Source of the DNA: an uncultured Candidatus Saccharibacteria bacterium
GTDB lineage: Bacteria; Patescibacteriota; Minisyncoccia; JACQLN01
Length of the DNA stretch: 64,000 nucleotides
Assembly (NCBI GenBank): GCA_964365305.1
Contig: CAYIPG010000001.1
Location: 2,214-66,213, forward strand
Direction: 5' to 3'
This document shows positions 21,344-53,763 of this stretch, in pieces. Positions within the stretch are counted from its first letter, which is position 1. Each line of letters opens with the position of its first letter. The notes under the pieces were generated by a model. That model saw only the letters and a program-made list of their open reading frames with translations, ran no database searches and was not told the DNA's origin. Position numbers and translations under genes: made by a program.

Positions 21344-22750
21344 TTAATTAAACTTGAACTTGCGCGCGGCAAACACAGTCATTTTTAGCAACAACCAGCC
21401 GTGTTTCCACCTTTGGATGTTGGTATTGCCGTAAGCGCGGGCGCCATAGCGTATTGGCATCTCAACAATTTTTAAATTTAGCTTGGCTGCCCCAAACAGT
21501 AAATCAAAATCGCCGAAAGGATCAAAATCACCAAAATAAGATCTATGGGCGGCTATCCTTTCATAGTCACTTTTAAACAACACCTTAGTGCCACATAAAG
21601 TATCTTTTAGACGCTGACCCAAAATCCAACTAAACATCATACTGAAAAATTTATTGCCTAAGATATTCAAAATCCTCATTGATTCTTTTTCCATCGGATA
21701 AACCAACCGTGAACCGTTTATAAATTCGCCCTTGCCAAAAACCAGGGCGCTATAGAACTTTGGCAAATCCTCTGGGGCTACCGTAAGATCAGCATCTAAA
21801 ATAATCAATACTTCTCCTTGGGCCATTTCAAAACCCAGTCGCACCGCATCCCCCTTGCCGGCCCCTTTCTGAACTGCGCAGCGAATATGGTTTTTATTGC
21901 TGTACTTATCTATAACCCGCCGAATCTCCTCTGGGGTACCGTCTTTAGAATGACCTTCAATAAAAATAATTTCTTGAGAACTTCCAAATTTCGGCAAACG
22001 CAAAATAGCATTTTCGATATTACCTTTTTCGTTTCTAGCTGGAATAATAATTGACACCGAATAGTCCTTTTCTTTTTGGGGCTGGGGTCGAGCCACTACA
22101 TAGTGAATCAAACCCAATTGTGAAAATATCGGCAAATTAGCAATAATTTTATTAAAAAAACTGGAAACTAAAGGTATCCAGATAGGTAAAAGCATTTTTT
22201 CGCCTTTCTTGATAACTTCAAAACCGGATAGATAAAGTAAATTTTCTATATCTTTTGGAGATAACCAATTCTGTATTGGCTGTCTGGCTTTTAGACCCAT
22301 AAATTCCGCCAAACGAAGAACGGGCTCCCACAAATAATTATAATAAGTAATAATAACTCTTGTTCGTTCATTGCTTACTTTTAGAAGGGCCGAAAAAGTT
22401 TTATGTACATCCTCTAAATAACCCAAAACATCGGACATAATTACATAATCAAACTTTTCTGTAACAAGCGTATTTTCAGCATCACCAACCCGCCATTCTA
22501 AATGAGGATATTTGGCTTGAGCAATTTCAATCATTTTAGAGCTGATGTCAATCCCGACACTGCACTTGGGTCTGAGCTCATTAAGCAAATCACCAGTTCC
22601 TGAACCTATTTCAACAACAGAACTATTTGGTGGAATGATAAATTTGCATAAATTTTCAACTACTTGGTGATAATACCAATTTATTTTTCTCCATTTATCC
22701 CGATCTTTGGCATGTTTATTAAAATAATCAATTAACTCGTGTTTGTTCAT
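21344..22750 (-). CDS. Bifunctional SAM-methyltransferase / family-2 glycosyltransferase fusion.
   Basis: N-terminal VVEIGSGTGDLLNEL methyltransferase motif I. C-terminal SIIIPARNEKGNIE...ILDADL GT2 (DPM1/GtrB-like) motifs with the DxD. Confidence 0.7.
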   Translation of the reverse strand: MNKHELIDYFNKHAKDRDKWRKINWYYHQVVENLCKFIIPPNSSVVEIGSGTGDLLNELRPKCSVGIDISSKMIEIAQAKYPHLEWRVGDAENTLVTEKFDYVIMSDVLGYLEDVHKTFSALLKVSNERTRVIITYYNYLWEPVLRLAEFMGLKARQPIQNWLSPKDIENLLYLSGFEVIKKGEKMLLPIWIPLVSSFFNKIIANLPIFSQLGLIHYVVARPQPQKEKDYSVSIIIPARNEKGNIENAILRLPKFGSSQEIIFIEGHSKDGTPEEIRRVIDKYSNKNHIRCAVQKGAGKGDAVRLGFEMAQGEVLIILDADLTVAPEDLPKFYSALVFGKGEFINGSRLVYPMEKESMRILNILGNKFFSMMFSWILGQRLKDTLCGTKVLFKSDYERIAAHRSYFGDFDPFGDFDLLFGAAKLNLKIVEMPIRYGARAYGNTNIQRWKHGWLLLKMTVFAARKFKFN

Positions 22751-22832: not shown

Positions 22833-24710
22833 TTATTTGACAACTATTTTATAAATTTCCACGGATGGATTTTTATAGATTAATCTAAGATTTTTTTCTG
22901 CGCTAAAATTGGGATTGCTAAATTGTTTTTCTAATGGACCAAGATATACTAAACCGGAATTAAAATTCTCCCAATTTAATACAAGATTATTATAATTATC
23001 AATAGATTCCTTAAGGTTTTTATTAAAAACAAATTCTGAACGCCCAGCAGCGGTAAGATACCACATGCTTTTATCAAAATTTATTCCCGTATCTTTATAA
23101 CACTTTTCTTGACTGCAATCATATGGGATGATTGCCTTAAATCTTAAAGCCAGCATTTCTTTTGGTACATCAAATAACTTATTAACTATCAAAAATCTTC
23201 TTTCTAATTCTGAACTGGAAAGCGTAGACAAAAAACCGGTAGCCAAATATGGTCGAGATGAAGTATATGATCCAAGGTATAAAGAAGTCACTAAAGAATC
23301 AGAAATAACTGTGGATTCTGCAGATAAATTAGATTCAACCCACTTCCAGGAACTTATGATATCGCCCGGAAAAACATACGATATTATTTGGTCTTTGGGC
23401 GGGTACAGAAACCCAGAAAGATTCACAATGTGCTTTGTTACCAAAGAAACCGATAAAATAACAACAAACAAAATTATACCGCTCTTAAACATGGACTTGG
23501 TTGGAAAAAATGTCCTGAATAAATCGTAAAGCAAACTTGAAATTATAATAAAATAAACCAAACTAATCGGTTTGTTAAAATGAAAAAGGGCAAAACCAAA
23601 ACCGGTAATCATCGGTGTATACCAAACCAAAAAAGAAGTAACAATAAGGCCGATAAAGAAAACTCCTTTCTTTATTAAATCTGCCTGTTTTTTAAAATAA
23701 AATAAATAAACGGCAATTAATGTAATGAAATAAAATAAATAATTTACTAAAATGGTCCAGCCCATCGAAAAATTAGTTATATAGTCATTAACCAGGAACC
23801 TGCCAATTTCTTTGCCTAATCTAAGGGAGTAATCAGAACTGTAACCGGAAAAATTAAATCTTAGATAGTTAACGATATATGGTATTAAAACCAAAAAAAT
23901 AGTCGAGCATAATAAAAAAACTGGTTTAAATTTATAATCATTCGCAGTACGATTATATAAACTATAAATAAATACCAAACCGATAAAAACCATCATGAAC
24001 AACCAATAGTGTAAATAAACATAAGCCAACAGACCAATAGATAAACCGGCAAAAATAGCATTGATTTTGGTTGGTTTAATCCAAAATAAATAAGTTGTTA
24101 AAATAGCCAAGATCAAGAAACCTAGTGTAAGCATTGGATCATCTATCCTAGAAAAATACATCTTACTTATAGGAGTTCTGACCAAAGGAATAAACTTTTT
24201 TATAATCATTCCTAAATAATCATCATCAATATAACTATAACCAACCAACATTTGTGGAATTTGCGTTAAAGTGCCGACTAAACTAAAAAATAATGAGGGA
24301 ATCTTAGATCTAAGAAAAATCGTACCTAAATAATAAAAAAGAATAAAAAATATAATTGCGAATAAAAACTGCGCCGACAAATAAGCGATGTTTATATCAC
24401 CCCTAAATAATTTAATGAAAAAAGAAAACAATAATGGAGTAATAGGATTTAGTGGCGTAGGATTGTTGTCATTGGCATAAATACCACCAGGAGGAAAATG
24501 GCCATCATAAACTTCTCTGGCCCTAGGCATATATTGGAAAAACTCATCCCTATATACATTCTGCTGCATTAATAAAAAATCAGCGTTAGATTCATAAATA
24601 TTAATCCAAAGCAATATTTGCGGCATAACAAATAAAAAACCGACAAAAACGGCCAAAATAGCAACCATTAACCATATTTTATTATGTATATAAGAAATGA
24701 TGGGATTCAT
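22833..24710 (-). CDS. Large polytopic membrane protein of unknown family (paralog A).
   Basis: 625 aa, more than 12 TM helices. Shares the conserved motif MPRAREVYDGHFPP near the first extracytoplasmic loop and a conserved C-terminus (...EIYKI) with the 34053-36014 protein. Confidence 0.4.
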   Translation of the reverse strand: MNPIISYIHNKIWLMVAILAVFVGFLFVMPQILLWINIYESNADFLLMQQNVYRDEFFQYMPRAREVYDGHFPPGGIYANDNNPTPLNPITPLLFSFFIKLFRGDINIAYLSAQFLFAIIFFILFYYLGTIFLRSKIPSLFFSLVGTLTQIPQMLVGYSYIDDDYLGMIIKKFIPLVRTPISKMYFSRIDDPMLTLGFLILAILTTYLFWIKPTKINAIFAGLSIGLLAYVYLHYWLFMMVFIGLVFIYSLYNRTANDYKFKPVFLLCSTIFLVLIPYIVNYLRFNFSGYSSDYSLRLGKEIGRFLVNDYITNFSMGWTILVNYLFYFITLIAVYLFYFKKQADLIKKGVFFIGLIVTSFLVWYTPMITGFGFALFHFNKPISLVYFIIISSLLYDLFRTFFPTKSMFKSGIILFVVILSVSLVTKHIVNLSGFLYPPKDQIISYVFPGDIISSWKWVESNLSAESTVISDSLVTSLYLGSYTSSRPYLATGFLSTLSSSELERRFLIVNKLFDVPKEMLALRFKAIIPYDCSQEKCYKDTGINFDKSMWYLTAAGRSEFVFNKNLKESIDNYNNLVLNWENFNSGLVYLGPLEKQFSNPNFSAEKNLRLIYKNPSVEIYKIVVK

Positions 24711-24771
24711 TAAGATGTTAATTGAACTTAAATATTTTATAACTTATTAATTAAATATGCCAAATAAATGC

Positions 24772-26172
24772 TTACATATTAGACAATATAAAATTAGCCG
24801 TCCTTTCCCCCGCCCTGCCATCTAAAATAGAGCACTGTTCTTTAACTAACCTGGTTCTGGCATTTTCATCTATAGATGGATTCTCTAGATATTTATTAAT
24901 CCAACGAACCATCTCCTCCTTGTCGCTAACCAATTTTATTGCGCCGGTTTTTAACGCGTTTAAATAATGTGTCATTTTATAGAGTTCTGTGGGAGATCTA
25001 TATACCGATAAAGGTTCGGCTAATTCAAAATTAATATTTATTACCGGTTTGTTAAAAATAGAAGCATCAATGCACAAGCTAGAAGCGTAAGAAACTAAAA
25101 CATCGCAATGATATAAGCTATTTATAAGCATCTCTATATCTTTTGGGCTTAAATCCCAATCAATGCCGGCGCCTATCGGCATGTGATTTGAGAATCTTAT
25201 TCCAGGAATATCAAAAACTATGTTCTTTCTTTTTCTAACTTCGCCAATTTCGACAAAATCATTTGGCTGGAATCTCACAAACAACTGCGCGTTCTTAATA
25301 ACATTTTGTTCAATAAGCGCTTGTAAATAATCAATCATAAGCCATCTTGAGCTAATGAAACGTTTAGCCAAGGGAGCATAAAAAACAACTTTTTTGTTTG
25401 GATCTCCGCCTGTTTGTTTAAAAAAATCAGATCGACTTATTTTTTTCTGGTTAATATATTGATCATAATGGGGCACTCCGCCAATAAAAATATCCTTGCT
25501 TGGTAAATCTGCGTAATTAATAGCGTCTGTTTTTACCAAATCATTGTAGACAATTAATTTATCTGGCAATACCCTCAAAGCGCACCGACCGGTAATTTTA
25601 TCCCATGAATTTGCTAAAGCAAAAGTTTTAACGCCCCTTTTTCTAGCTTCCCTCAATAAAGACGCTTCTCTATCATCAAATGGATGGGCCGAGACGACGG
25701 CAATTGGCCTGTATTTATCAAAAAAAACATTGAATGCAGAATCATCAATCAGCAATATATCTAAAAAACGATACAATCTCCTAACAAGACGCCGGGCAAG
25801 TATACGATTCAGCAACCACCCGCCCCATAATCTAAAAAGATTTTTATGTGTTTCAAATGCCAACTTGCGTCTCCAATCTATGGTAGCTGTATTAATCATC
25901 TTAAATTTAAGGGAACCAAAAAACCGTTGCCATAAACTATGCTCGGTTTTGGAAACAATTTCATAAAATACTCTTGGATTGTTAAATTGCCGCTGATAAA
26001 AGTTTATTTTATTTTTTGTATTTACAAAAAAAACTATCTTAATAACCGGATTGGCAATCAGGGTTTTGAAAATATCCGTTCTTAAGATATTTTTAGCTTC
26101 CACTCCTTGAAAAATGGTTATAAATATGGTCTTAAAATCATTCATAAAAAACTGCGGAAAAATACCGCACAC
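24772..26172 (-). CDS. TagF-like CDP-alditol phosphotransferase family GT-B protein (paralog 1 of 4).
   Basis: VVFYAPLAKRF (cf. YAPTWR) and CDVLVSYASSLCIDASIFNKPVININFE...Y (cf. TagF DILITDYSS..FD...KP.IFY) motifs. 466 aa. Confidence 0.5.
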   Translation of the reverse strand: MCGIFPQFFMNDFKTIFITIFQGVEAKNILRTDIFKTLIANPVIKIVFFVNTKNKINFYQRQFNNPRVFYEIVSKTEHSLWQRFFGSLKFKMINTATIDWRRKLAFETHKNLFRLWGGWLLNRILARRLVRRLYRFLDILLIDDSAFNVFFDKYRPIAVVSAHPFDDREASLLREARKRGVKTFALANSWDKITGRCALRVLPDKLIVYNDLVKTDAINYADLPSKDIFIGGVPHYDQYINQKKISRSDFFKQTGGDPNKKVVFYAPLAKRFISSRWLMIDYLQALIEQNVIKNAQLFVRFQPNDFVEIGEVRKRKNIVFDIPGIRFSNHMPIGAGIDWDLSPKDIEMLINSLYHCDVLVSYASSLCIDASIFNKPVININFELAEPLSVYRSPTELYKMTHYLNALKTGAIKLVSDKEEMVRWINKYLENPSIDENARTRLVKEQCSILDGRAGERTANFILSNM

Positions 26173-26258
26173 TGAATAAATATGTATATTTTTATAACTT
26201 ACTGAATAATGGAGCGGTTTTATGGGTTAATGTTTATTCTAAAAAATACTTGGATAAA

Positions 26259-27458
26259 TCACCAACTTATTTGAATTGAAGTTGTTTTTTTATCATTAAG
26301 TTTAGTCAAAAAATCAGGATTTAATTTATAATAATCATTCTTTGTGTTCCATTCTAAAAAATTGGAGATATTAAAAAGAATTTTGCCCATAGTAACTTCT
26401 GTAGAATGCATCCCATCAAACATATAAAGATCGTTCAAACCTAAAGATGCTAAATCGGAATAATCAAAAAACTGAAACCCAAACTCATCAAATAATAATG
26501 GAATCCTGGCTTGAAAATTGTTAAATAAATCCCGCTGATAAACAGAACTTTTCAACTCTTTTATTACTTCTGATGAAAACGGCGTTGCTAAACCTACAAC
26601 TTTTATACCTTTTTTTTTGCTAATCTCTAGAAATTCAGCCAAAAGATTGAATCTATCTTCGCTAAAAAAACTACCCTGTTCAAATGGATCCGTACCATTA
26701 TTAATCCGATCCAAAACTTTTTCGCCGTCAATAAACTTAATTTCATTCGCCATCTCTTGAATATTGTGCCCATATTGATAACTGCCATCCGAACGAAAAC
26801 CGTCCCCAAACAACAACGCATTCAAACCGATAGCCGACTTACTTTCAATAGGTTCTTGCTCGTCAACTACTTTTTTAAAGATGTATATCGGATTTTTTGC
26901 TATTTGTAAAAACAAATACCTAGCAACATAAAGATGCGCTTTCCACTGATACGCTTCTTCTTTTTTACTTAAATCTTCCGATAATCCATAAATCAAGTCA
27001 TTTTTCTCGCCAAGCCAATAAAAATCAACACCTAAAATTATTGTCTTGGGTTTGGCTTCGTCTGGCAGTAATTTTATAAAATCAATCAGGTCAGCAATAT
27101 TATGAATTAAGCCGCCGGCATTATAGAATTTTTCACTGTCGTCAAACATTTCTTGGCGAATTTGCATAACGCGCGAAGAACCAAGAACTAAAACATCCGG
27201 CTTTTTTGATAAAATAGTTAAGTATTTATATGTCCTCAAAGATTGATCGGCTATTTTGCGACCAAAAAGAATATCCTGCCTACTCTTGGTCTGCAAACTA
27301 ATAACCCTTTTTATCGGCAAGAGTTCTCCCGAATAAAAAATAACCGCTTCAAGAATAAAAAAAATAATCACAAGCGGCAACCAAAACAAAAAGATATTTT
27401 TCAAAAAAAGTTTGAGAGTTTTCGGATATTTAGCCATAAACAAACCTCCGCACAACAA
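26259..27458 (-). CDS. DltD-like membrane-anchored SGNH-type acyl-transfer protein.
   Basis: 399 aa. An N-terminal TM helix is followed by VLVLGSSRVMQ, closely matching the DltD catalytic-serine motif LLVLGSSEL. Size and topology match DltD (about 390 aa). Confidence 0.55.
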   Translation of the reverse strand: MLCGGLFMAKYPKTLKLFLKNIFLFWLPLVIIFFILEAVIFYSGELLPIKRVISLQTKSRQDILFGRKIADQSLRTYKYLTILSKKPDVLVLGSSRVMQIRQEMFDDSEKFYNAGGLIHNIADLIDFIKLLPDEAKPKTIILGVDFYWLGEKNDLIYGLSEDLSKKEEAYQWKAHLYVARYLFLQIAKNPIYIFKKVVDEQEPIESKSAIGLNALLFGDGFRSDGSYQYGHNIQEMANEIKFIDGEKVLDRINNGTDPFEQGSFFSEDRFNLLAEFLEISKKKGIKVVGLATPFSSEVIKELKSSVYQRDLFNNFQARIPLLFDEFGFQFFDYSDLASLGLNDLYMFDGMHSTEVTMGKILFNISNFLEWNTKNDYYKLNPDFLTKLNDKKTTSIQISW

Positions 27459-27478
27459 ACTGTCGCGAAGTTATTAAA

Positions 27479-27886
27479 TTAAAATTGAAAATAAATAAAG
27501 GGATTATAATTATACACGCCGAACAATAAGATCACAGCAACAACAAGATAATAAATCAACCACCTAAGCCAAGATGGATAATCATCTATCTGTAAAGGAT
27601 GCTCTTTTCTTCTCTGTATCCATTCCACCACAATGAAACCCGCAATAATAAATAATCTTTTTGGATAAATTGTCCCGATATTAAATAGATTAAATTCCAA
27701 AGCTATTTTTTTTACCACATAAAACGCTTCATTTATTGTGTTGGCTCTGAAAAATATCCATCCAAACAAAACAAGAATAAATGTAAATAATATAGCTGGG
27801 ATATCTTTAAGCGAAGCAACGGTATTTGATTCAAATTTATTAATTAATTCTTCTGACTTTGACGCGGAATGTTTGTTTCCATCCAT
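27479..27886 (-). CDS. Small integral membrane protein (3 TM), possibly DltX-like.
   Basis: 135 aa. The C-terminus PFIYFQF resembles the conserved C-terminal aromatic FIYxQF-type motif I recall for DltX. This is weak evidence. Confidence 0.3.
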   Translation of the reverse strand: MDGNKHSASKSEELINKFESNTVASLKDIPAILFTFILVLFGWIFFRANTINEAFYVVKKIALEFNLFNIGTIYPKRLFIIAGFIVVEWIQRRKEHPLQIDDYPSWLRWLIYYLVVAVILLFGVYNYNPFIYFQF

Positions 27887-27925
27887 AATATTAAGTTAGT
27901 TATTTTAGTATTAAATTTATTATAT

Positions 27926-28690
27926 TCACATCATATGCAACCCACCGTCAATTGGAATATTCAAACCGGTAAGATATTCCGCATTGTCGCTTAATAAAAA
28001 TTTGGCTAAACAAGCCACATCCTTATTATTTACCAGCCGTTTTAATGGGGTTTGTGATTCTATCAATTTAATAAAGGTTTCTGGATATATCGTGGAAATA
28101 CCCTCTCCACTAACACCAGGAGATATCATATTAACCCTTATTTTTCTAGAAGCAAGCTCATTTGCTAAACAACGAACTAGACCAAATTGCCCATATTTTC
28201 CAACCGTGTAACTAAACAAACGGGCCGGAGGAACATTAAATAAACACGCTGAACCAATTACTAAAACACTTTTCAATGGATGGTCTTCCTCAATAAGCTT
28301 TGTAATTGTAAGCCATAAACCTTTTATCTGGACAGCAAACTGTATCTCAAAATTATTCCAATCGTCTTTATTGATTGTTCTAAATTCCGTTGAAACGCCG
28401 ACTGTGTAAACCAAGTTATTAAATTTTATTTGACTTGAACCAATAATTTTTTTAACTTGCGACTCATTGGTGATGTCTAATTGCGCGGTAATTAATGTGC
28501 TTTTTTTGGATTTTGATAATTTAATTAATTCTAAAAGACAACTTTCTTTTTCTTGACGAAAAAAAGTAAGAAATAGATTATGCCCGGCAAGCAGTAACTC
28601 ATGAGCTATTGTTTTGCCAAAAGTGCTGGTGCCGCCAATTATTAGTGTGTTGGGCTTGATCATAGTTTTAAATATATTTAACCTTGGCAA
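27926..28690 (-). CDS. Short-chain dehydrogenase/reductase (FabG-like ketoreductase).
   Basis: TLIIGGTSTFGKTIA glycine-rich NAD(P)-binding motif; 254 aa classical SDR length. Confidence 0.7.
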   Translation of the reverse strand: MPRLNIFKTMIKPNTLIIGGTSTFGKTIAHELLLAGHNLFLTFFRQEKESCLLELIKLSKSKKSTLITAQLDITNESQVKKIIGSSQIKFNNLVYTVGVSTEFRTINKDDWNNFEIQFAVQIKGLWLTITKLIEEDHPLKSVLVIGSACLFNVPPARLFSYTVGKYGQFGLVRCLANELASRKIRVNMISPGVSGEGISTIYPETFIKLIESQTPLKRLVNNKDVACLAKFLLSDNAEYLTGLNIPIDGGLHMM

Positions 28691-29096
28691 TACCGTTAAC
28701 CACTTCTTCGTTATTTTGATTTATGATGACAGTTTCAATTTCTAATAAATAAACCGAATTAATCTTATTTTTTATCTTACCCCTAACAGTGACAGTTTCA
28801 CCAATAAAAACCGGCTTTTTAAAATTAATATTTTGCGATAAATACAAATTATGATTTTTAAAAAACTTGCCTACTAAGGTTGAAAAAAATGCCGCTAAAA
28901 GCATCCCATGCACGACAGGTTCTAAAAAATCCTTACTTTTAGCAAATTTTTTATCGCGATGAAGTAAATTTTTATCTCCCGATAGAGAAATAAAATCCAT
29001 TACCTTGTTTTTACTAATAGTCGTTTTGAAAAACGCGACATCCCCGACTTTTATTTTTTCCCAAATATCTTTCTGGGGTATTTTTTTAACATACAT
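28668..29096 (-). CDS. MaoC-like hotdog-fold dehydratase/hydratase.
   Basis: 142 aa. SGDKNLLHRDKKFAKSKDFLEPVVHGML resembles the MaoC/(R)-hydratase hotdog active-site region (D/H...H-G). Confidence 0.6.
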   Translation of the reverse strand: MYVKKIPQKDIWEKIKVGDVAFFKTTISKNKVMDFISLSGDKNLLHRDKKFAKSKDFLEPVVHGMLLAAFFSTLVGKFFKNHNLYLSQNINFKKPVFIGETVTVRGKIKNKINSVYLLEIETVIINQNNEEVVNGIAKVKYI

Positions 29097-29325
29097 ATTT
29101 TACATTATATTTATCTAAAACTTTTTTAATATCTCCCACATTTTTAACCGCCATAAGATCATCCATATCAAATCTGACACCACTAGCTTTTTCCAGCTCA
29201 ACCATCATCATTATAGCATTAAAAGAATCCCATGTTGGCGTGTTGGTTGGAGAAATTTCATCATTTATTTTGTTGCTGGGGATTTCCAATATTTTTGCCA
29301 GTATATCGTATAATTTTTCTTTCAT
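29086..29325 (-). CDS. Acyl/peptidyl carrier protein (DltC/ACP-like).
   Basis: 79 aa. WDSFNAIMMMVELE contains the phosphopantetheine-attachment Ser in a DS(L/F) context followed by the helix-II acidic patch. Confidence 0.7.
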   Translation of the reverse strand: MKEKLYDILAKILEIPSNKINDEISPTNTPTWDSFNAIMMMVELEKASGVRFDMDDLMAVKNVGDIKKVLDKYNVKYVC

Positions 29326-29327
29326 AT

Positions 29328-31115
29328 TTAATGTTTATTGATTTCTATAAAACCATATTGATTAAACACATAATCATCCAAATCACGCTCCCAAATGTCT
29401 TCAGTTTCGGATGATTTTATTTTATGGAAATTAAAAATTTTATAAAAATCTTTAACCTGATTGTTTTTTAGCGTTGGTTTGTAACAGGCGCGTACTTTTT
29501 TCGGGTTTAATTTCTTAAGCTCGCTTAAGATAAACCCAAAAAACTGCTCTTCTACTTTCTTCCCCAAAACCCTACAACTAAGCAACATGGAATCTATCTC
29601 CCACCTATCCGGCATATCTTTGACCATACAAAATCCGGTAATACCGTATTCTCCAAATTTATCAACAACATCTAGCGCCCAAAGTTTATGGCCTGATTCA
29701 ATAAATTTTTTGATATCATCTTCTTGATAACGATGTGTGGTTAAATTAAATTGGTTTGTTTTTTGTGTTAATTGAGCGCTGCGCGGTATCAAAAAATCAT
29801 CAACTGCTTTTATCGAAATACATAAATTTAAATTATTTAAAAAAGTATCTAAATCTATAATTGCATCTTTATATTCTATTCTTTGTTTTTCTTGTAAATA
29901 CATCGCGCTCCGTTTCTTATCCTCTCCAGTAAACTCAAATGTATTGAATCCTTTATAATCCAGCAGAGTTTGGATATATTTCGTTGAATCGGTGGGCAAG
30001 TCCAAAACTGTGACATCCGGCAATGTTTGTTTTATTAACTCGCGGTTAGTCAGATCGTCATCAATAAACACCAAACTGTCCAAACCGACATTTAATTCTC
30101 TGGCTATTTCCTGCATATTCTTTGCTTTATTGTCCCAATTTATCTTGCTTACTATAATATCGTCTTTTCGCAAAACCATATACGGATGATGTAAAAATAC
30201 TTCTTCTACATCTTCTTGATTATTCTTGCTGTTAATCGCCAGCAATATGCCTCTTTTGCTTAAACTCAATAACAATTTCTGGAAATAATAAAACTGCTGC
30301 CCTTCGCCTGCTGGCGCTAATTTTATTCCGGCTAATCCATCTTCACCAATAACACCTCCCCATAATGTATTATCTAGATCAAGTACAATACATTTCTTCT
30401 TTTTGAAAGCCAGAGGCACAAGGTAAGATGTCAATTCTTCTGCTAACATTGGAATTGCTTCGGGAGATAATTTCATATCAGCCGTAAAAGAATATTTATC
30501 ATACCAAAAATCTTTTTTGCCTATGTATCCTAACCATTCATTAAAATTAAAAATGAAAACTTGTTTATCATTTTGATAAGTATTCAGTAAATTATTATTA
30601 TAGTCATCAATTATTCTATACCATCCATTATTGAGTTTGCTGTCAAAAATTCCAGTTACCGGCGGCCAAATTTTACTGGCATTGCTAATAATAATTTTTG
30701 CTTTAGTTTTACTTTTTATGTAACTTACAAGCTGTAATAATCCATCCTCCGTTTCATATTTAAATTTATTGAGTTCTTCATTAGTAATTTCATGGTGGCG
30801 ATATAAAATATCTTGATTTAAACCATGCAAATCGAGTAACAAAAAAATAATGTCTGGTTTAAATTCGTAAAGTTCACTACCCAGTATCTCTTGCTTCCAC
30901 TGTCCATATTTACCTTCGTAAACATCTAAAAAAATATCTTGAACAAATGATTTGGTTTTTAGGCATTCTGCCAATCCCTTAATAGTAAAGCTTGACAAAA
31001 GAGCTACATTTTTTGCTTCTTTATCTTTAGATATTTTATCAATTTCTTTGGCCCACCCAATGCATGATGCTATGGCATTTGACTCTAATTTTATTTTTTC
31101 TTTTGATATGTTCAT
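29328..31115 (-). CDS. FkbH-like HAD-superfamily (subfamily IIIC) protein, putative glyceryl-ACP-forming loading enzyme.
   Basis: 595 aa. The central CIVLDLDNTLWGG HAD motif I sits about 235 aa from the N-terminus with a downstream INSKNNQEDVEEVF (HAD IIIC). The C-terminal GNAT-like region (WEIDSMLLSCRVLGKKVEE) matches FkbH/OzmB-type domain order. Confidence 0.6.
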   Translation of the reverse strand: MNISKEKIKLESNAIASCIGWAKEIDKISKDKEAKNVALLSSFTIKGLAECLKTKSFVQDIFLDVYEGKYGQWKQEILGSELYEFKPDIIFLLLDLHGLNQDILYRHHEITNEELNKFKYETEDGLLQLVSYIKSKTKAKIIISNASKIWPPVTGIFDSKLNNGWYRIIDDYNNNLLNTYQNDKQVFIFNFNEWLGYIGKKDFWYDKYSFTADMKLSPEAIPMLAEELTSYLVPLAFKKKKCIVLDLDNTLWGGVIGEDGLAGIKLAPAGEGQQFYYFQKLLLSLSKRGILLAINSKNNQEDVEEVFLHHPYMVLRKDDIIVSKINWDNKAKNMQEIARELNVGLDSLVFIDDDLTNRELIKQTLPDVTVLDLPTDSTKYIQTLLDYKGFNTFEFTGEDKKRSAMYLQEKQRIEYKDAIIDLDTFLNNLNLCISIKAVDDFLIPRSAQLTQKTNQFNLTTHRYQEDDIKKFIESGHKLWALDVVDKFGEYGITGFCMVKDMPDRWEIDSMLLSCRVLGKKVEEQFFGFILSELKKLNPKKVRACYKPTLKNNQVKDFYKIFNFHKIKSSETEDIWERDLDDYVFNQYGFIEINKH

Positions 31116-31122
31116 ACTTAAA

Positions 31123-31461
31123 TTATCTCTTAAACGCTATAGCTATTCCAAAACTACTATCATGACTTATGCTTATTTGTATATCCTGTTTTGGCAAACC
31201 TTTTATTTTCACGCATGGCTGTCCACATACTTTATGCTTAATTTCAATTTGACCATGGTTATTTATTTCTTTTTTACCACATGCTTTAATCACAGCTTCT
31301 TTTGCGGCAAAAATTCCAGACAAATGTTCAGAAAATCTTACATTTGAAAAGCAATATTCCCATTCTTTCTTTGTATAAAATTTATCCCAAAATGGATAAT
31401 CTTTTTTCTTTATATTTTTAAACCTACTAATAGAGACAATATCTATTCCAATTCCAATCAT
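31123..31461 (-). CDS. acpS: Holo-ACP synthase (4'-phosphopantetheinyl transferase, AcpS type).
   Basis: 112 aa. MIGIGIDIVSISRF and AAKEAVIKA motifs of AcpS. Confidence 0.75.
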   Translation of the reverse strand: MIGIGIDIVSISRFKNIKKKDYPFWDKFYTKKEWEYCFSNVRFSEHLSGIFAAKEAVIKACGKKEINNHGQIEIKHKVCGQPCVKIKGLPKQDIQISISHDSSFGIAIAFKR

Positions 31462-31569
31462 AATTATTCCGCCTTAAAATAAACTACTTAACAATACCAT
31501 ACCATTATCAATCGGCTCTGTCAAAAAGCCAAGGTTTGGTTGCCATTCGTAGAAAAATATCTTGCTAAA

Positions 31570-32649
31570 CTAAAAAATTTTAATCTTTTTCCTAATATTT
31601 TTAATTATTGAACCCATGACTAAATAAAATCCAAATATGACTCCCATAAATATATAATTCCATCCAGCTCCATGCCATAAACCTATAAGCATAAAAGTAA
31701 TAAAGGTACTTGCATATATCCAGCTTTTTGTTTTGTTTTTCCGACTAAATACCAGGGGATAATAAAGATAATCTCTTAACCAAGTTGATAGTGAAATATG
31801 CCAGCGGCGCCAAAATTCTTCTATATTTCTTGAAAAGTAAGGATAGGAAAAATTTCTCATTAACTTAAAACCGAACAGTTTGGCCGTGCCAATCGCAATA
31901 TCAGAATATCCAGAAAAATCAGCATAAAGCTGGAAAGCAAAAAAGAAAGTGGCAATTAACAACTGATTGCCAGAAACATTTGATAAATTACTATATGTAT
32001 TATTTACAGCAATCGCTAACATGTCCGCTATAAATATTTTCTTAAAAAAACCCCATAGCATTTGCCGACAACCGTCAATAGCTTCTTCCATTTTAAATAC
32101 TCTTTCTCGCGCGAACTGCGTTAAAAAACTTTGCGCTCTATCTATTGGTCCAGCGATAAGTTGGGGAAAAAATGAAACAAATGCTAAAAACTCTGTAAAA
32201 TTACCGGCCGCAGGAATCTTGCGCCGATAAACATCAATGGCGTAACTTAATTCTTTAAAAGTATAAAAACTGATACCGACCGGTAAAATAATGTTAAGCG
32301 TAGTAACCGAAGTTAAAGCCATACCAGCAGACAAAAATAATCCCTGCAACGAACTAATAAAAAAGTTAAAGTATTTAAAAAAACCAAGGATGCCAAGGCT
32401 TGAAATTATAGTTATTGTTAAATAAATTTTGCGCCTTTGTGTATCGTCTGTGTTATGAATTTTCTTTCCCAAAAGAAAACTTATCGTGCTTGATATAAAA
32501 ATTAAAAATAGAAAACGCCAATCCCACCAACCATAAAAAATATAACTAACTATAAGAATAAATAAATTCTGCCTTGCTCTGTTCAATTTCCAGTAAATCA
32601 GGAAAACAAACGCTAAAAAAATTATAAATTCCAAAGAGTTAAAAAGCAT
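31570..32649 (-). CDS. MBOAT-family membrane-bound O-acyltransferase (DltB/AlgI-like).
   Basis: FWRRWHISLSTWLRDYLYYPL contains the invariant MBOAT His motif; multi-TM, 359 aa. Confidence 0.8.
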   Translation of the reverse strand: MLFNSLEFIIFLAFVFLIYWKLNRARQNLFILIVSYIFYGWWDWRFLFLIFISSTISFLLGKKIHNTDDTQRRKIYLTITIISSLGILGFFKYFNFFISSLQGLFLSAGMALTSVTTLNIILPVGISFYTFKELSYAIDVYRRKIPAAGNFTEFLAFVSFFPQLIAGPIDRAQSFLTQFARERVFKMEEAIDGCRQMLWGFFKKIFIADMLAIAVNNTYSNLSNVSGNQLLIATFFFAFQLYADFSGYSDIAIGTAKLFGFKLMRNFSYPYFSRNIEEFWRRWHISLSTWLRDYLYYPLVFSRKNKTKSWIYASTFITFMLIGLWHGAGWNYIFMGVIFGFYLVMGSIIKNIRKKIKIF

Positions 32650-32694
32650 TGTTTAAAATATAAAAATAATCTTGTGTTTCAAACAAATATGGCA

Positions 32695-34056
32695 TTATTG
32701 TAAAACCAGTTCGGATAACAAATCAGCTATCCTGGAAGCCGATTTACCATCCAGTTTCCCAATTTGTTCAACAACTAAACTATTACGCCCAGACCTATCC
32801 AGGCCAGAATCATTAAGATATATATTGATAGTGCGTATCATTTCGTCTGGGTCTTTAGCAACAAAACAAGCCCCAGTTTTAAGCATTTTCTTGGTATGCT
32901 CATAATATTCCGCAAAACGCGATACGCTTCCAAAAACAGGCTTTTGCTCTTGTCCGTCAAAAGATACCAGAACAATAGGTCTATCAAGCGCTGCCGCGTC
33001 AAGAACCAAACTGGAAGCATAAATAACAACCAAATCGCTATGATATAACGAATCAGCTAACGGTAAATCTTCATCCATGGTAACCTCCCAATCTGAATAA
33101 ATATCTTTTCTAAATGGAATGCCTGGTTTATATATAAAAAAATTATTATCCGGAGTAAAACCATCGAAAGAAACATAATCATTCGGCGGTAATCTTACTA
33201 AAAACTTAACACTGCCTGGTATTTTTTTATCCAAAAGAGACCTTTTCAATATATCCAGTAGCTGCCCATCTGTGTTGGCAAAACGCCGGCCAAGCGGACC
33301 GACAAAAATTAATCTGTCTGAAGGATTAAAACCAAGCTTTTTCAAAAAAATGTCTCTAGAACAATATTCTCTCCTGACATAATGATCCAGCTGAGGCAAT
33401 CCTGACACAAAAATGTTCCCCTCTTTCATGTCTTCATGCTCTAATGCCTCTTTTTTAATAACATTGTTTTGAACTATAAGTTTATCCGGCTTAATTCTAA
33501 AAAGGCCTTTGTTGGTAATGTTATCCCAAGATCTAACCATACCTACAGTTAGCACACCGCTTTTTTTGCTTGCGGCCAAAAGATAAACATCCATGTCATG
33601 AAAAATATCAGTGGAAAATAATAAAAATGGAGAATATTTGTTTAAATATTTCTCCATCAAACCGATATCCATAAAAATAAGATCCAACCAACGAACAAAC
33701 TTCTTAACAAAACCAAAATTGCCAAAAAACTTACCCAATATCCTTGAAAAATAAAAATGGATTGCGTTTTGGTCGGAAAGATACTTTTTCTTTTGATGAA
33801 AAAAACGAGTTGTGGTGTTTACTAATGACCCGCCCAGGTATCTAAATAAAATATCTTTTCTGCTTAATTTTAAACTCGGTATTCCTTCTATGACTATATT
33901 TCCAAACTCAAATTTTTTCTTAAAATATTCTTCCTTATAGTCCGGCACCAATACAACCACCCTAATTCCGCTATTGACCAATAAACTAGCGATCCCGGTT
34001 TCCAAAATATTTCTAGATATAAAAGGATTAAAACTTGTAATAAATATTGTTTTCAC
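32695..34056 (-). CDS. TagF-like CDP-alditol phosphotransferase family GT-B protein (paralog 2).
   Basis: LIFVGPLGRRF and DLVVIYASSLVLDAAALDRPIVLVSFD motifs. Overall colinear with the 24772, 41207 and 49603 proteins. Confidence 0.5.
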   Translation of the reverse strand: MKTIFITSFNPFISRNILETGIASLLVNSGIRVVVLVPDYKEEYFKKKFEFGNIVIEGIPSLKLSRKDILFRYLGGSLVNTTTRFFHQKKKYLSDQNAIHFYFSRILGKFFGNFGFVKKFVRWLDLIFMDIGLMEKYLNKYSPFLLFSTDIFHDMDVYLLAASKKSGVLTVGMVRSWDNITNKGLFRIKPDKLIVQNNVIKKEALEHEDMKEGNIFVSGLPQLDHYVRREYCSRDIFLKKLGFNPSDRLIFVGPLGRRFANTDGQLLDILKRSLLDKKIPGSVKFLVRLPPNDYVSFDGFTPDNNFFIYKPGIPFRKDIYSDWEVTMDEDLPLADSLYHSDLVVIYASSLVLDAAALDRPIVLVSFDGQEQKPVFGSVSRFAEYYEHTKKMLKTGACFVAKDPDEMIRTINIYLNDSGLDRSGRNSLVVEQIGKLDGKSASRIADLLSELVLQ

Positions 34057-36014
34057 GGTTTCGTTATTTTATAAATTTCCACTAAAGAGTTACGATAAAC
34101 CAAACTCAAATTTTTATCCGCCGCTAGATTAATCCGACTGCCCAATTGCCTTTCCCATGGGCCAAAATAGACATAATCAGACGGCATATTGCTTATAACG
34201 CCTATCGAGGTGCTATTATAACGCTCTGTAAGTTCGTCTATTTTGCCCATCGGCAAGCCGGTTTTGCCGTCAAAATACTCCGCGAATGTTTTTTTAAATC
34301 CATCTCCATAAAGTTGAAACTGTGTTTTATTCAAATTAATACTCATATCCGGGAAACAGCCGGCATCAAAACAATTTTGAGGCGCTTTACCTTCCAGTTG
34401 CTGTCTAAAAAGATCAGATGGGACATTGAATAGTTTCCGAGCTATAAGCAGCCGTTCTTCCAATTCAAAATTAGAAGCCAAAGAAAGATGCGCCCGAGGT
34501 AAGAAGGGGCGGGCCGAAGTATATGCCATTAAATAGATGGAGGTTACATAGGAAGGTGAAATAATTTTGGGTTCTGGCTCAAGATTATGATTAATCCAAT
34601 CCCAAGAATCAACAACTTCATTGGAGAATTTATAGTAAAGCAAGGTTTCTTTATTGGGACTTTTCCATAAAGAGACGGTGTTTATGGCGTATTTGGAAAA
34701 AACTAGCAGACCTAGCACAGCTACTCCAATTTTTATTACCTTCTTTATTCTAAACGAATTTCTAAAACTATAAATCCAATCAAACAACAGCGTTATCCAT
34801 ATAATATAAAGAGTAACCGCCACAGGATAACGCCATTTGCTTGGCACCGTTGACTGCCCGATAAACAGCTGTAAATTCCACACCAATATAGCCGCTATTA
34901 TAAATCCAAAAAACAATAAACCTTTTTTATATTTATTTGTGAATTTGCCATCAGCAACCACGGTGTTTCTAAAGTATGTCGCCCCAATAGCCAAAATGGT
35001 TATAAAATAAAACAAATAATCCAATAGGTTCTTTTTATGAAACCCCCAGTCCCGGCCGGTCAGCACCGCCGAGCGATAAGATATGTCTTCAGCGTCCGGC
35101 AACGCCTTAAACATGAAATAATTGATAAAATAGGGCAACAATAGAATACCAAAAACAACAAAAAGAACTCCGAAATTTTTAAGCAGTTGCCGGTCTTTCG
35201 GATAAAACAGCGCCGCGGCTATGGCCATAACAGCCATGACCGCTGTCCAATATATCCAAGTGGTAAAATAAATATAGGCCAATAGCGCCGCCGGCAAAGC
35301 CGCCGCTACGGCAAGAGAATATTTCGGCTTCATCCAAAACCGGATAAAAGTAATTATCGCCGTAAGATAAAATGGATAGACCAGTAAAGGATGGTCAATT
35401 CTGGCTATACGAAGTTTATCAATCTGGGTTCTGATGATTGGAATAAACTGCTTGAAGGTATAATCAAACAGTGTTTTGAGATCATTGCGGAAATCAAATG
35501 AAAAGACATTGGGAAGAATCGGGGTTAAAGCGCCGGTTGCGGCAAAAAATAATGACCAGCTTTTGGATTTGAACAACAACCGTCCAACTATATAAAGAAA
35601 AACAAATATAACCGCCGAGAATAAGAATTGAATAAATAAATATGCTGATGTAACATCGCCCTTAAAAAGAGTTATGGCCAACCCGAATACCAAAGAAGGC
35701 AGGGCGTTGCGGGGAGACGGCCTTTGTTGGTCCAAAGAAAGTTCGGTTGGAGGAAAATGCCCGTCATATACTTCCCGAGCCCGTGGCACATACATATAAA
35801 GCTCGTCGCGGTAGGTTTTTAGTTGAGCCAATACAAACCTATCTTCATGAATATTAAAATAATCCCTAATGGCTAAAGGCGGACCAATAAATAAAAAACC
35901 CACCGCGGCCGCGGCGCAGCTAATCAAAAGGAATTCCTTTCTTGAAAATCTTGAAAACAAATTGGCTATTTTATTTGTTGCGTAACCGAAAATCACCCTT
36001 AAACTGTTTTTCAT
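34053..36014 (-). CDS. Large polytopic membrane protein of unknown family (paralog B).
   Basis: 653 aa. Shares YVPRAREVYDGHFPP and the C-terminus ...LVEIYKI with the 22833-24710 protein. The 5' end overlaps the RmlB-like gene by 44 nt, so the true start may be an internal Met. Confidence 0.4.
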   Translation of the reverse strand: MKNSLRVIFGYATNKIANLFSRFSRKEFLLISCAAAAVGFLFIGPPLAIRDYFNIHEDRFVLAQLKTYRDELYMYVPRAREVYDGHFPPTELSLDQQRPSPRNALPSLVFGLAITLFKGDVTSAYLFIQFLFSAVIFVFLYIVGRLLFKSKSWSLFFAATGALTPILPNVFSFDFRNDLKTLFDYTFKQFIPIIRTQIDKLRIARIDHPLLVYPFYLTAIITFIRFWMKPKYSLAVAAALPAALLAYIYFTTWIYWTAVMAVMAIAAALFYPKDRQLLKNFGVLFVVFGILLLPYFINYFMFKALPDAEDISYRSAVLTGRDWGFHKKNLLDYLFYFITILAIGATYFRNTVVADGKFTNKYKKGLLFFGFIIAAILVWNLQLFIGQSTVPSKWRYPVAVTLYIIWITLLFDWIYSFRNSFRIKKVIKIGVAVLGLLVFSKYAINTVSLWKSPNKETLLYYKFSNEVVDSWDWINHNLEPEPKIISPSYVTSIYLMAYTSARPFLPRAHLSLASNFELEERLLIARKLFNVPSDLFRQQLEGKAPQNCFDAGCFPDMSINLNKTQFQLYGDGFKKTFAEYFDGKTGLPMGKIDELTERYNSTSIGVISNMPSDYVYFGPWERQLGSRINLAADKNLSLVYRNSLVEIYKITKP

Positions 36015-37035
36015 AATGGTTACGAAATTCTCGTTGAGATTTAATTTTTTGCCACCAACCCTTATTATCCAAATACCACTTTACTAGATCTTTTAACGAG
36101 TTATCAAATGAAATACTGCATTTCCAGCCAAGTTCCTTTTTAATCTTGGCGGAGTTGGGGGAGTAACGGGCATCAGAATAAGGACGGTCATTGATATATT
36201 TTATGTACTTTTCCGGCTTAACTCCCAATGTCTTGGCTAACAAGTAGATAACTTCCAAATTGCTTTTTTCCTCGCCATTAATGTTATAAATTTTAAAGTC
36301 CTCGGCTTTATGAATCATCACATCCACGGCCTTGCAAAAATCCAAAACATGCACCCAACTGCGAATTTGCTTGCCATCGCCGTGTATTGGAATTTTTTTG
36401 CCTTCAATAATACTGGTTATAATTACCGGAATTAATTTTTCCGGATATTGATAAGGCCCAAAATTATTAGAACTCCGAATAATCAAAGCCGGTGTCTTGT
36501 GTGTTTTTATGTAGGCCTGAACCATCACATCCGCCGCCGCCTTAGAAGCGGCATAGGGATTAGTCGGGCTAATCGGGTGGGACTCGGATGTTTTAACCCC
36601 CAACGGCACATCGCCATAAATTTCATCAGTGGAAATATAAACAAAGCGAGGCACCTTGCGCCGATGCGCGGCATCTAACAAAACATGAGCGGCCTTTATA
36701 TTGGTATCAATAAACCGGGAAGAATCAATAATAGAGCGATCCACATGGCTTTCGGCCGCAAAATTTATAACGACATCAAATTTATATTTTTTTAGAACCC
36801 TATTTATTAATTTACTATCGCCAATATCTCCGTGAATAAAATTATAACGCTTACTGGAATCCAAATCCGATAAATTATCCTTGTTGCCGGCATAGGTCAG
36901 CAAATCCAAATTAGCCAAATAATAATTTGGATACTTGTTATGCAAATATCGAACAAAATTAGAGCCCATAAAACCACTACCACCGCATATTAATATTTTT
37001 TTAGATATCTTCATAAACCAATCATATTTCAACAA
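35971..37035 (-). CDS. rfbB: dTDP-glucose 4,6-dehydratase-like (RmlB-type extended SDR).
   Basis: ILICGGSGFMGSNFV, DLLTYAGN (cf. DKLTYAGN) and YISTDEIYGD motifs. Confidence 0.75.
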   Translation of the reverse strand: MLKYDWFMKISKKILICGGSGFMGSNFVRYLHNKYPNYYLANLDLLTYAGNKDNLSDLDSSKRYNFIHGDIGDSKLINRVLKKYKFDVVINFAAESHVDRSIIDSSRFIDTNIKAAHVLLDAAHRRKVPRFVYISTDEIYGDVPLGVKTSESHPISPTNPYAASKAAADVMVQAYIKTHKTPALIIRSSNNFGPYQYPEKLIPVIITSIIEGKKIPIHGDGKQIRSWVHVLDFCKAVDVMIHKAEDFKIYNINGEEKSNLEVIYLLAKTLGVKPEKYIKYINDRPYSDARYSPNSAKIKKELGWKCSISFDNSLKDLVKWYLDNKGWWQKIKSQREFRNHYEKQFKGDFRLRNK

Positions 37036-37045
37036 TTAAACTGGA

Positions 37046-37729
37046 TTAACCAATAAAACGATACTTGATAGTGGTCCATAATATTATAAGGCCATGCTTC
37101 ATGTTGATTTTCTTGCCTTCTTTATAACTTCTGGGGTTATATTTAATCGGCACTTCCACGCTTTTGTAACCGCGTCCCCAGGCCTTGCAAACAAGTTCTG
37201 TGTCAAAATCAAAATCATCGGTCTTAACTTCAATGGCATCCGTCACCCTCTTGGAAAAAACTTTGTAACCACCCAGATATTCCTTAGCCCTGCGACCATA
37301 AAATAAGTTTGTTGTCCAAGTGATGAGATTATTACCAAGAAGATTTATTTGGTATACCGACCCAAACTTAGGCACATCCCGAACTCCCAAAACCATATCT
37401 ACTTTACCATCTATTATTGGCTTCATTAAGGCAGGATAATCTGTGGGACTGTATTCTAGATCAGCGTCTTGGATTATCATCATATCCCCGGTGGCAACTT
37501 TTAAGCCAGTTTTCATAGCACCGCCTTTGCCTTTGTTTTTCTCGTGATAAATAACCTTACAACTATCCTCCAGACCCTTTAAGATATCTCGCGTGCCATC
37601 GGTTGAGCCATCGTCCACAATAATAATTTCCTTTTCAATCAACCCCAAGTCAACGGCTTTAACCGTGTCAACAACCTGCTGAATTGTATTCTTCTCATTA
37701 AACGCGCAAATAATTATTGATAATTTCAT
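37046..37729 (-). CDS. Family-2 glycosyltransferase, polyprenyl-phosphate sugar synthase type (GtrB/ArnC/DPM1-like).
   Basis: LSIIICAFNE...IIVDDGSTDGT...QDAD motifs; 227 aa with no C-terminal TM domain. Confidence 0.75.
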   Translation of the reverse strand: MKLSIIICAFNEKNTIQQVVDTVKAVDLGLIEKEIIIVDDGSTDGTRDILKGLEDSCKVIYHEKNKGKGGAMKTGLKVATGDMMIIQDADLEYSPTDYPALMKPIIDGKVDMVLGVRDVPKFGSVYQINLLGNNLITWTTNLFYGRRAKEYLGGYKVFSKRVTDAIEVKTDDFDFDTELVCKAWGRGYKSVEVPIKYNPRSYKEGKKINMKHGLIILWTTIKYRFIG

Positions 37730-48810: not shown

Positions 48811-48878
48811 ATACTATAACATCTAGCAACCATGTCTTGTTTTTGGATGTTATAGTAATAGATTAACATAAAATAAAA

Positions 48879-50973: not shown

Positions 50974-50980
50974 TGGTTAG

Positions 50981-51691: not shown

Positions 51692-51761
51692 AGATAAAAC
51701 TATATATAATTGTAACCCAAAAATAAAGCCGGCGGTTTTTTGCCGATGGCTGTGTGTGATC

Positions 51762-53000: not shown

Positions 53001-53049
53001 AAAAAGAGCAAAAATAACCTTAACATTTGTATAAACTTAAGTAAAGACA

Positions 53050-53730: not shown

Positions 53731-53763
53731 ATAGATTTAATTATTTGGTTAATTATAATATTT

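Follow-up and report, generated by a model that had tools for sequence, protein, structure and literature searches.

The window analyzed here, a stretch of 64,000 nucleotides from an uncultured Candidatus Saccharibacteria bacterium (assembly GCA_964365305.1, contig CAYIPG010000001.1, positions 2,214 to 66,213), encodes two paralogous polytopic membrane proteins, paralog 1 and paralog 2 (Table 1). Judged from a structural model, both very probably have the fold of GT-C glycosyltransferases. With a probability of about 70%, each is the outer-face GT-C enzyme of a polyprenyl-phosphate-sugar-dependent, three-component extracytoplasmic glycosylation system of the GtrB/GtrA/GtrC or Arn type. This reading draws on the predicted fold, a set of outward-facing conserved residues, and a recurrent association, by adjacency and by gene fusion, with a glycosyltransferase family 2 (GT2) enzyme resembling DPM1, AglJ, and ArnC. 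The two proteins belong to a new sequence family, whose fold and type of system are already well known.

Paralogs 1 and 2 align end to end with 35% identity and 53% positives (BLASTP, E 4e-108), so the motif common to their first loops, DE..Y.PRAREVYDGHFPP, reflects homology and not chance. Both also share the C-terminal end VEIYKI. The initial annotation of this DNA had described the two open reading frames (ORFs; 625 and 653 aa), the loop motif, and the EIYKI end in the same way. By their identities the paralogs are the product of an old duplication and not a recent one, because they are only 35% identical to each other, whereas paralog 2 is 47-82% identical to proteins of other genomes. Paralog 1 is the more divergent copy. 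In paralog-2 numbering, it carries substitutions at the acidic E91 (to G), N380 (to Y), Q382 (to P), and Y614 (to L), positions whose conservation across the family is about 94-95%, and it retains R314, W473, and the equivalents of D70/E71 (its own D55/E56). It may have a different specificity, a weaker activity, or be partially degenerate.

Structural modeling of paralog 2 with AlphaFold 2 on alignment A1 gave a mean predicted local distance difference test score (pLDDT) of 76.5 and a predicted template modeling score of 0.82, with most transmembrane (TM) blocks at 85-95. A fold search with this model returned only GT-C enzymes at the top; Foldseek independently ranked PglB, STT3, DPY19, AftA, and ArnT first (E 5e-6 to 2e-4, TM-score about 0.4-0.5), and no transporter, Wzy, WaaL, or SEDS fold was among the significant matches. 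The predicted class is GT-C_A, whose members have in common TM1-7 with two juxtamembrane helices (JM1 and JM2), a kinked TM3, and an essential Asp at the JM1 tip (PMC12041299). In the model, the first seven TM helices adopt this conserved module. TM1 (25-55) and TM2 (121-148) are separated by two helices (66-83 and 104-116), and TM3 is broken or kinked at Pro165. Loop 1 (residues 51-120) thus contains two non-spanning helices, with D70 placed within the first turns of helix 66-83.

The topology was derived by taking the segments from the model and counting Lys and Arg in 129 near-full-length homologs aligned to the family hidden Markov model. The density of Lys plus Arg is 0.26-0.41 in the six predicted cytoplasmic segments vs 0-0.12 outside. 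This distribution indicates 11 TM helices with the N-terminus inside, the C-terminus outside, and an outer C-terminal domain of ∼200 aa. Both proteins had earlier been called polytopic with more than 12 TM helices; the polytopic character stands, and the count is better given as 11 TM helices plus the two juxtamembrane helices of loop 1. The fusion homologs described below provide a second indication of orientation. GT2, glycosyltransferase family 4 (GT4), and S-adenosylmethionine (SAM)-dependent methyltransferase domains act on cytoplasmic substrates, and exactly one hydrophobic segment of TM length separates such an N-terminal domain from the loop-1 motif. Together, the charge statistics and this single TM segment place the motif on the extracytoplasmic side.

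Sequence conservation was assessed on 161 sequences, representatives at most 50% identical to each other, with the loop-1 positions D70, G85, and 91 read from 139 aligned homologs. Position 70 is Asp in 90% and Asp or Glu in 95%, G85 is conserved in 92%, and position 91 is acidic in 94%. Outside loop 1, the conserved set comprises R314 (96%), N380 (95%), Q382 (93%), G386 (97%), W473 (100%), T499 (97%), R521 (95%), G618 (94%), and E621 (96%). All of these positions lie on the predicted outer face. By alignment, the exact PRAREVYDGHFPP string is a subfamily signature, and the family-wide core is D70…G85…[DE]91. The catalytic Asp of characterized GT-C enzymes is D56 in PglB and D62 in AftB, and by its modeled position D70 is the candidate catalytic Asp, putatively equivalent to the JM1-tip Asp of GT-C_A enzymes. 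Of the roles offered for these proteins in the initial annotation, GT-C-type transfer is the one that agrees with the data: GT-C enzymes lead the fold search, the motif is extracytoplasmic with its residues conserved, the first loop helix has the conserved D70 close to its beginning, and no assignment to a transporter family emerged.

Genomic neighborhood analysis covered 25 family genes: the 2 in the window, 19 in the loci L001-L019, and 4 in L020-L023. Of these genes, 19 have a DPM1-like GT2 no more than 2.1 kb away, often at a distance of 30-200 bp, and 8 have a TagF-like gene, of the kind found beside both window paralogs, no farther away than that. Distant members (L021-L023) retain the GT2. 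L022 has one on either side and no TagF-like gene within 6 kb; L021 has two short-chain dehydrogenase/reductase (SDR) genes, a GT2, and EamA; L023 has a GT2, an NTP-transferase, two SDR genes, GtrA, and EamA; and L020 has a GT2, a Polysacc_deac_1 gene, and a GtrA fusion. Fusions tie the same parts together. An N-terminal GT2 is fused in 8 homologs (P0006, P0008, P0010, P0012, P0021, P0085, P0098, and P0099), and other members carry an N-terminal SAM-methyltransferase (P0110 and P0139), a GtrA flippase domain (P0106), or a GT4 (P0100); no TagF-like fusion was found among the N-terminal fusions of the members examined. Given the counts of 19 vs 8 of 25 and the fusions in 8 homologs, the constant partner of the family is the DPM1/AglJ/ArnC-like GT2, not the TagF-like gene.

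Each paralog in the window has such a GT2 encoded with it, as in three-component systems, which are defined by a lipid-linked donor and a GT-C enzyme (PMC11127046). For paralog 2, this is the 227-aa GT2, nearly all of which is matched by Pyrococcus Dol-P-Man synthase (9.5e-17) and ArnC (2.5e-11), its best matches in the PDB. Its best NCBIfam models are AglJ, Dol-P-hexose transferase, PpgS, PgfS, and ArnC, all under their equivalog cut-offs, and it is 46% identical to the fused N-terminal GT2 domain of P0012. The only gene between it and paralog 2 encodes an RmlB-like SDR, which probably shapes the donor sugar; homologous SDR genes occur beside family genes in L002, L003, L005-L007, L009, L015, L021, and L023. 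A divergently oriented DegT/RfbH-like enzyme is possibly a further donor-tailoring enzyme. For paralog 1, the GT2 is itself fused to a SAM-methyltransferase (Pfam Methyltransf_23 and GT2; NCBIfam AglJ at 1.4e-29 over residues 232-461) and is 32% identical to the 227-aa protein. The neighborhoods of GT2, SDR, GtrA, and EamA genes correspond to the arrangement of three-component lipid-phosphate-sugar glycosylation (PMC11127046) and of the Arn pathway.

The proposed pathway would begin in the cytoplasm, where nucleotide-sugar enzymes would tailor the sugar (the RmlB-like and DegT/RfbH-like proteins for paralog 2, the fused methyltransferase for paralog 1). The respective GT2 would then load it onto polyprenyl (undecaprenyl) monophosphate, in the case of paralog 1 possibly together with methylation; the GT2 fusions and adjacency and the GtrA fusion point to such a polyprenyl-phosphate-linked donor. 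A flippase would carry the lipid-linked sugar over the membrane, a step for which relatives offer GtrA (one fused, one adjacent) or EamA candidates. Finally, on the outer face, the GT-C enzyme would pass the sugar to its acceptor. Asp70, close to the start of juxtamembrane helix 1, would be the catalytic residue, and R314, N380/Q382, W473, other outward residues, and the C-terminal domain would bind the acceptor and the phosphate of the lipid. The likeliest acceptor is the surface glycan, rich in nonulosonic acids, that the window encodes and that would receive the sugar as a side-branch, because the island already has an initiating phosphoglycosyltransferase (PGT), a Wzx flippase, and a Wzy_C protein for the main chain.

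Several observations weigh against this pathway. The fold is read from a computed model whose confidence is moderate (mean pLDDT 76.5), and non-enzymatic GT-C folds exist, PIG-U/GAB1 being among the fold matches. Profiles built from 14 (A1) and 42 (A2) sequences returned only noise from the PDB and linked no known GT-C family. N380 and Q382, ∼95% conserved in the family, are absent from paralog 1. The GT2s of the window have no TM helices and stay under every NCBIfam equivalog cut-off. A GtrA or EamA flippase was not found in the window by tblastn with the P0106 GtrA domain or by Pfam scans, leaving only the Wzx; the same tblastn query found no GtrA in L001-L019. It is nonetheless very improbable that the proteins are not enzymes but serve as scaffolds or bind substrate in the manner of PIG-U/GAB1, or that paralog 1 alone is catalytically degenerate. 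D70, R314, N380, Q382, W473, T499, R521, and E621 are 90-100% conserved in 150-plus divergent homologs, the fused lipid-sugar synthase suggests that its product is used, and paralog 1 keeps D70/E71 (as D55/E56), R314, and W473.

The same fold and donor could also serve a protein acceptor, by PMT/Ppm1-like or oligosaccharyltransferase (OST)-like glycosylation of the Ser/Thr-rich secreted proteins, which had been suggested earlier as O-glycosylation targets and of which the window does encode three (24-28% Ser+Thr). Fold similarity alone does not assign the acceptor, and the family has no MIR domain, no Pfam PMT match above threshold, and in place of the WWDYG motif of OSTs a S470-[WFY]471-x-W473 pattern (S-W-x-W), in which only W473 is invariant and D-Y-G is missing. 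Family genes lie inside polysaccharide clusters, not beside Ser/Thr-rich genes, and the Wzy_C/PglL-type protein with tetratricopeptide repeats (TPR), encoded next to two of the Ser/Thr-rich genes, is the more obvious O-oligosaccharyltransferase or ligase, which makes protein acceptors for the paralogs unlikely. Less probable still is en bloc transfer, a form of OST-like action specific to the Candidate Phyla Radiation (CPR). Here undecaprenyl monophosphate would be primed by the AglJ-like GT2, and on this lipid the glycan would be extended by cytoplasmic enzymes, among them the translationally coupled TagF-like (nonulosonic-acid?) transferase; after flipping, the GT-C enzyme would move the whole nonulosonate-capped oligosaccharide to Ser/Thr-rich surface proteins. 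If true, this would parallel in bacteria the Dol-P-based AglJ...AglB pathway of haloarchaea, and it would account for the TagF-like genes next to both window paralogs.

Those TagF-like genes, which adjoin the paralogs in opposite order (upstream of paralog 1 after a 61-bp gap, downstream of paralog 2 with a 4-bp overlap), had been correctly noted in the initial annotation and taken there as one half of a duplicated two-gene module, the other half being a membrane partner that might export or ligate the product. A dedicated partner that exports, polymerizes, or ligates a polymer (Wzy-, WaaL-, or transporter-like) would fit this contact, and TagF-like genes do occur somewhere in 13 of the 19 loci L001-L019, most of the longer ones. 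The wider evidence makes it very improbable. The counts favor the GT2 (19 vs 8 of 25), no TagF-family fusion exists among the members examined, and L022, L016, and L017 have no TagF-like gene in the flanks examined. Wzy, WaaL, flippase, and transporter roles were rejected because such folds are absent from the significant matches, and the island already has its own Wzx and Wzy_C proteins. The module finds no support either: the two TagF-like genes are 31% identical and the paralogs 35%, and these identities together with the neighborhood counts speak against a recent tandem duplication of the pair.

The TagF-like proteins themselves are divergent. The window encodes four (starting at 24772, 32695, 41207, and 49603), mutually 23-31% identical; the one encoded beside paralog 2 is 100% identical to NCBI entry P0160, which comes from a metagenome-assembled ‘Patescibacteria group bacterium’. 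Their matches to Pfam PF04464 are confined to the C-terminal part of that profile (from position 127-157 of 367). Teichoic acid polymerases use catalytic histidines (H444 and H584 in TagF; H300 in TarL, cf. the title of PDB 8va1), but in the 41-sequence alignment of the TagF-like proteins (A3) no His column reaches 90% conservation, and S176-W177-D178-N179 is conserved instead. No genes for CDP-glycerol or CDP-ribitol supply (TagD, TarI/J-type) are found in the window, which has three CMP-nonulosonate sets instead. The best NCBIfam model, under its cut-off, is BFO_1060, and Tannerella members of that family are needed to add pseudaminic or legionaminic acid derivatives to the O-glycan (PMC5420450). 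The TagF-like proteins are thus best described as generic GT-B enzymes, presumably cytoplasmic CMP-nonulosonic-acid (or related) transferases that build the island glycan, and they appear tied to the GT-C family at the level of the cluster and not as dedicated partners.

Beyond the window, an exhaustive profile search recovered 1,303 family representatives at 50% identity with E<=1e-3, of which 266 reach E<=1e-30; a word-indexed search gave only 13 homologs and understates the family. A motif-based genome scan yielded the 19 loci L001-L019, nearly all in metagenome-assembled genomes (MAGs) of Saccharibacteria, Harrisonbacteria, Yanofskybacteria, Sungbacteria, or other Patescibacteria. The family is unannotated and, where the organism is named, almost always from Patescibacteria (CPR). 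In the sources, homologs are named ‘hypothetical protein’ or after the fused domain only. Neither window paralog has a Pfam or NCBIfam match or a PDB sequence match, and bacteriorhodopsin, which appears at E>0.1 in PDB searches, reflects TM composition. Among 42 members, sub-threshold matches to PMT_2 occur in 2 (best E 7.8e-5) and to DUF6798 in 5, and one member, P0139, has a faint Dpy19 match (E 0.009). A profile comparison of the family with the YfhO protein of the window (hhalign) gave a probability of 0.4% and hence no relationship. No paper on the family appeared in the literature searched (Patescibacteria GT-C, Saccharibacteria nonulosonic acids, DUF6798). Clusters elsewhere hold two or three family copies (L006/L013 on CAZJFE010000001.1; L007/L019 on JBBTRE010000012.1), and in L013 two copies flank a single GT2. 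Such repeats in other CPR genomes mark multiplicity as a trait of the family and not a peculiarity of the window. Two loci, L010 and L018, lie on short contigs (JBBSXY010000143.1 and JBBSXY010000057.1) binned as ‘Nanoarchaeota archaeon H32-bin010’ and encode homologs of paralog 1 (73% identical) and of the third TagF-like protein of the window (50% identical). They are probably mis-binned CPR DNA; otherwise, they would represent gene transfer between CPR and DPANN.

By its gene content, the whole window is one glycan-biosynthesis island of the nonulosonic-acid type in a Patescibacteria MAG. Besides the genes in Table 1, it encodes several GT4 glycosyltransferases. Its nonulosonate regions (8223-12281, 17944-19622, and 46790-54921) comprise the three full NeuB genes, two NeuC-like epimerases, three CMP-sugar (CMP-nonulosonate-type) cytidylyltransferases, and two 2-hydroxyacid dehydrogenases. 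Several different nonulosonic acids thus appear to be made by the island. The Wzy_C + TPR gene directly adjoins two Ser/Thr-rich genes, one of whose products combines a long poly-Ser/Thr linker with two PG_binding_1 domains; this group could pair an O-oligosaccharyltransferase or ligase with the proteins that it modifies, and would be independent of the GT-C family. Between the two paralogs lies a Dlt-like, acyl carrier protein (ACP)-dependent acylation cassette, which also includes a MaoC dehydratase and an SDR and suggests that an extracellular glycan is O-acylated in an ACP-dependent manner (glyceroyl or hydroxyacyl?). Elsewhere, a UDP-sulfoquinovose synthase-like gene beside a gene of the 3'-phosphoadenosine 5'-phosphosulfate (PAPS) reductase family raises the possibility that a Patescibacteria surface glycan contains a sulfo-sugar, and a B12-binding radical-SAM enzyme possibly performs C-methylation or another unusual sugar modification.

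Table 1. Features of the window, in order of position (coordinates are those of the 64,000-nucleotide stretch; functions are predicted).
Coordinates	Strand	Feature	Details
1106-2494		Initiating PGT	
3525-4979	-	Ser/Thr-rich secreted protein	Poly-Ser/Thr linker, two PG_binding_1 domains
5015-5755	-	Ser/Thr-rich secreted protein	
5960-8185	-	Wzy_C + TPR protein	O-antigen ligase/PglL-type
10204-11313		NeuB synthase	
11310-12281		NeuB synthase	Weaker match
15466-17868		YfhO protein	Known GT-C
21344-22750	-	SAM-methyltransferase + AglJ-like GT2 fusion	468 aa; follows paralog 1 after 82 bp; predicted to make its lipid-sugar
22833-24710	-	Paralog 1	625 aa
24483-24548	-	Loop-1 motif of paralog 1	Residues 55-76, translation DEFFQYMPRAREVYDGHFPPGG
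24772-26172	-	TagF-like GT-B transferase	61 bp upstream of paralog 1; Glyphos_transf 41.1 bits; NCBIfam BFO_1060 7e-14
26259-32649	-	Acylation cassette	Dlt-like, ACP-dependent
26259-27458	-	399-aa protein (cassette)	N-terminal TM, ‘VLVLGSSRV’, no Pfam match; possibly DltD/SGNH-like
27479-27886	-	Membrane ORF (cassette)	135 aa; ‘...GWIFFRAN’ resembles C-terminal piece of AlgI/DltB-type MBOAT
29086-29325	-	ACP (cassette)	79 aa; PP-binding 28.4 bits
29328-31115	-	FkbH-like loader (cassette)	
31123-31461	-	Phosphopantetheinyl transferase (cassette)	
31570-32649	-	MBOAT (cassette)	
32695-34056	-	TagF-like GT-B transferase	4-bp overlap with paralog 2 stop; Pfam Glyphos_transf under threshold
34053-36014	-	Paralog 2	653 aa; predicted GT-C-fold glycosyltransferase
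35742-35807	-	Loop-1 motif of paralog 2	Residues 70-91, translation DELYMYVPRAREVYDGHFPPTE
35971-37035	-	NDP-hexose 4,6-dehydratase, RmlB-like SDR	TIGR01181 390 bits vs 365.1 cut-off
37046-37729	-	GT2, DPM1/AglJ/ArnC-like	227 aa; Pfam GT2 2e-34; predicted polyprenyl-phosphate sugar synthase for paralog 2
37907-39118	+	DegT/RfbH-like pyridoxal-phosphate (PLP) enzyme	Divergent from GT2 operon; Pfam DegT 7e-82; NCBIfam RfbH 359 bits vs 423 cut-off
41207-42562		TagF-like protein	
44401-45939	+	B12-binding radical-SAM enzyme	
46790-47842		NeuB synthase	
51762-53730	-	UDP-sulfoquinovose synthase-like and PAPS-reductase-family genes	NCBIfam NF041015, 547 bits vs 575 cut-off
54928-56328		Wzx flippase	
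63288-63986		Ser/Thr-rich secreted protein	

Patescibacteria (CPR) make up a large share of bacterial diversity and live attached to hosts, and how they build their surfaces is almost unknown. A family of about 1,300 representatives known as ‘hypothetical protein’ now has a predicted fold and topology, together with a candidate for the catalytic residue and a probable route to the donor. Should activity be demonstrated, these proteins would probably form a new CAZy GT family, as happened with the Citrobacter enzyme (GT136), and they would offer a handle on nonulosonic-acid-rich surface glycans that may mediate contact between episymbiont and host. The natural single-chain fusions of GT2 and GT-C could lend themselves to biochemical and structural work on how the making of a lipid-sugar is coupled to its use. 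As a mechanism this is familiar, which makes the finding useful and not surprising.

Among known systems, the described three-component systems are GtrB-GtrA-GtrC of Shigella and Salmonella, CsbB/GtcA/YfhO of Firmicutes, and GT136 of Citrobacter (PMC11127046, PMC7389260). As in these systems, a polytopic enzyme of the GT-C fold is paired with a DPM1/GtrB-type GT2, either as a neighbor or in one chain. One relative carries a GtrA fusion and another has GtrA as a neighbor, the genes lie within a glycan cluster, and the predicted active site faces outward. Unlike these systems, the family has no sequence similarity to GtrC, YfhO, GT136, or any Pfam family, its window GT2 is short (227 aa) and lacks TM helices, no GtrA is found in the window, single-chain GT2-GT-C fusions occur, and named members are nearly all CPR. 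Unlike ArnC/ArnT, which use undecaprenyl-phosphate-L-Ara4N (Und-P-L-Ara4N), and Francisella FlmF2/NaxD/FlmK, the associated SDR passes the dTDP-glucose 4,6-dehydratase model and not the ArnA model; in a further difference from ArnC/ArnT, the window has no ArnE/F genes. Lipid A is not expected in Patescibacteria. [quoted passage not shown] In contrast to AglB/STT3/PglB and PMT, the family lacks WWDYG and DK/MI motifs, a MIR domain, and Pfam STT3 or PMT matches, and its donor is probably a monophosphate-linked monosaccharide. With these same enzymes, it shares high fold scores, the acidic pair in loop 1, and a partner GT2 whose best NCBIfam match is AglJ.

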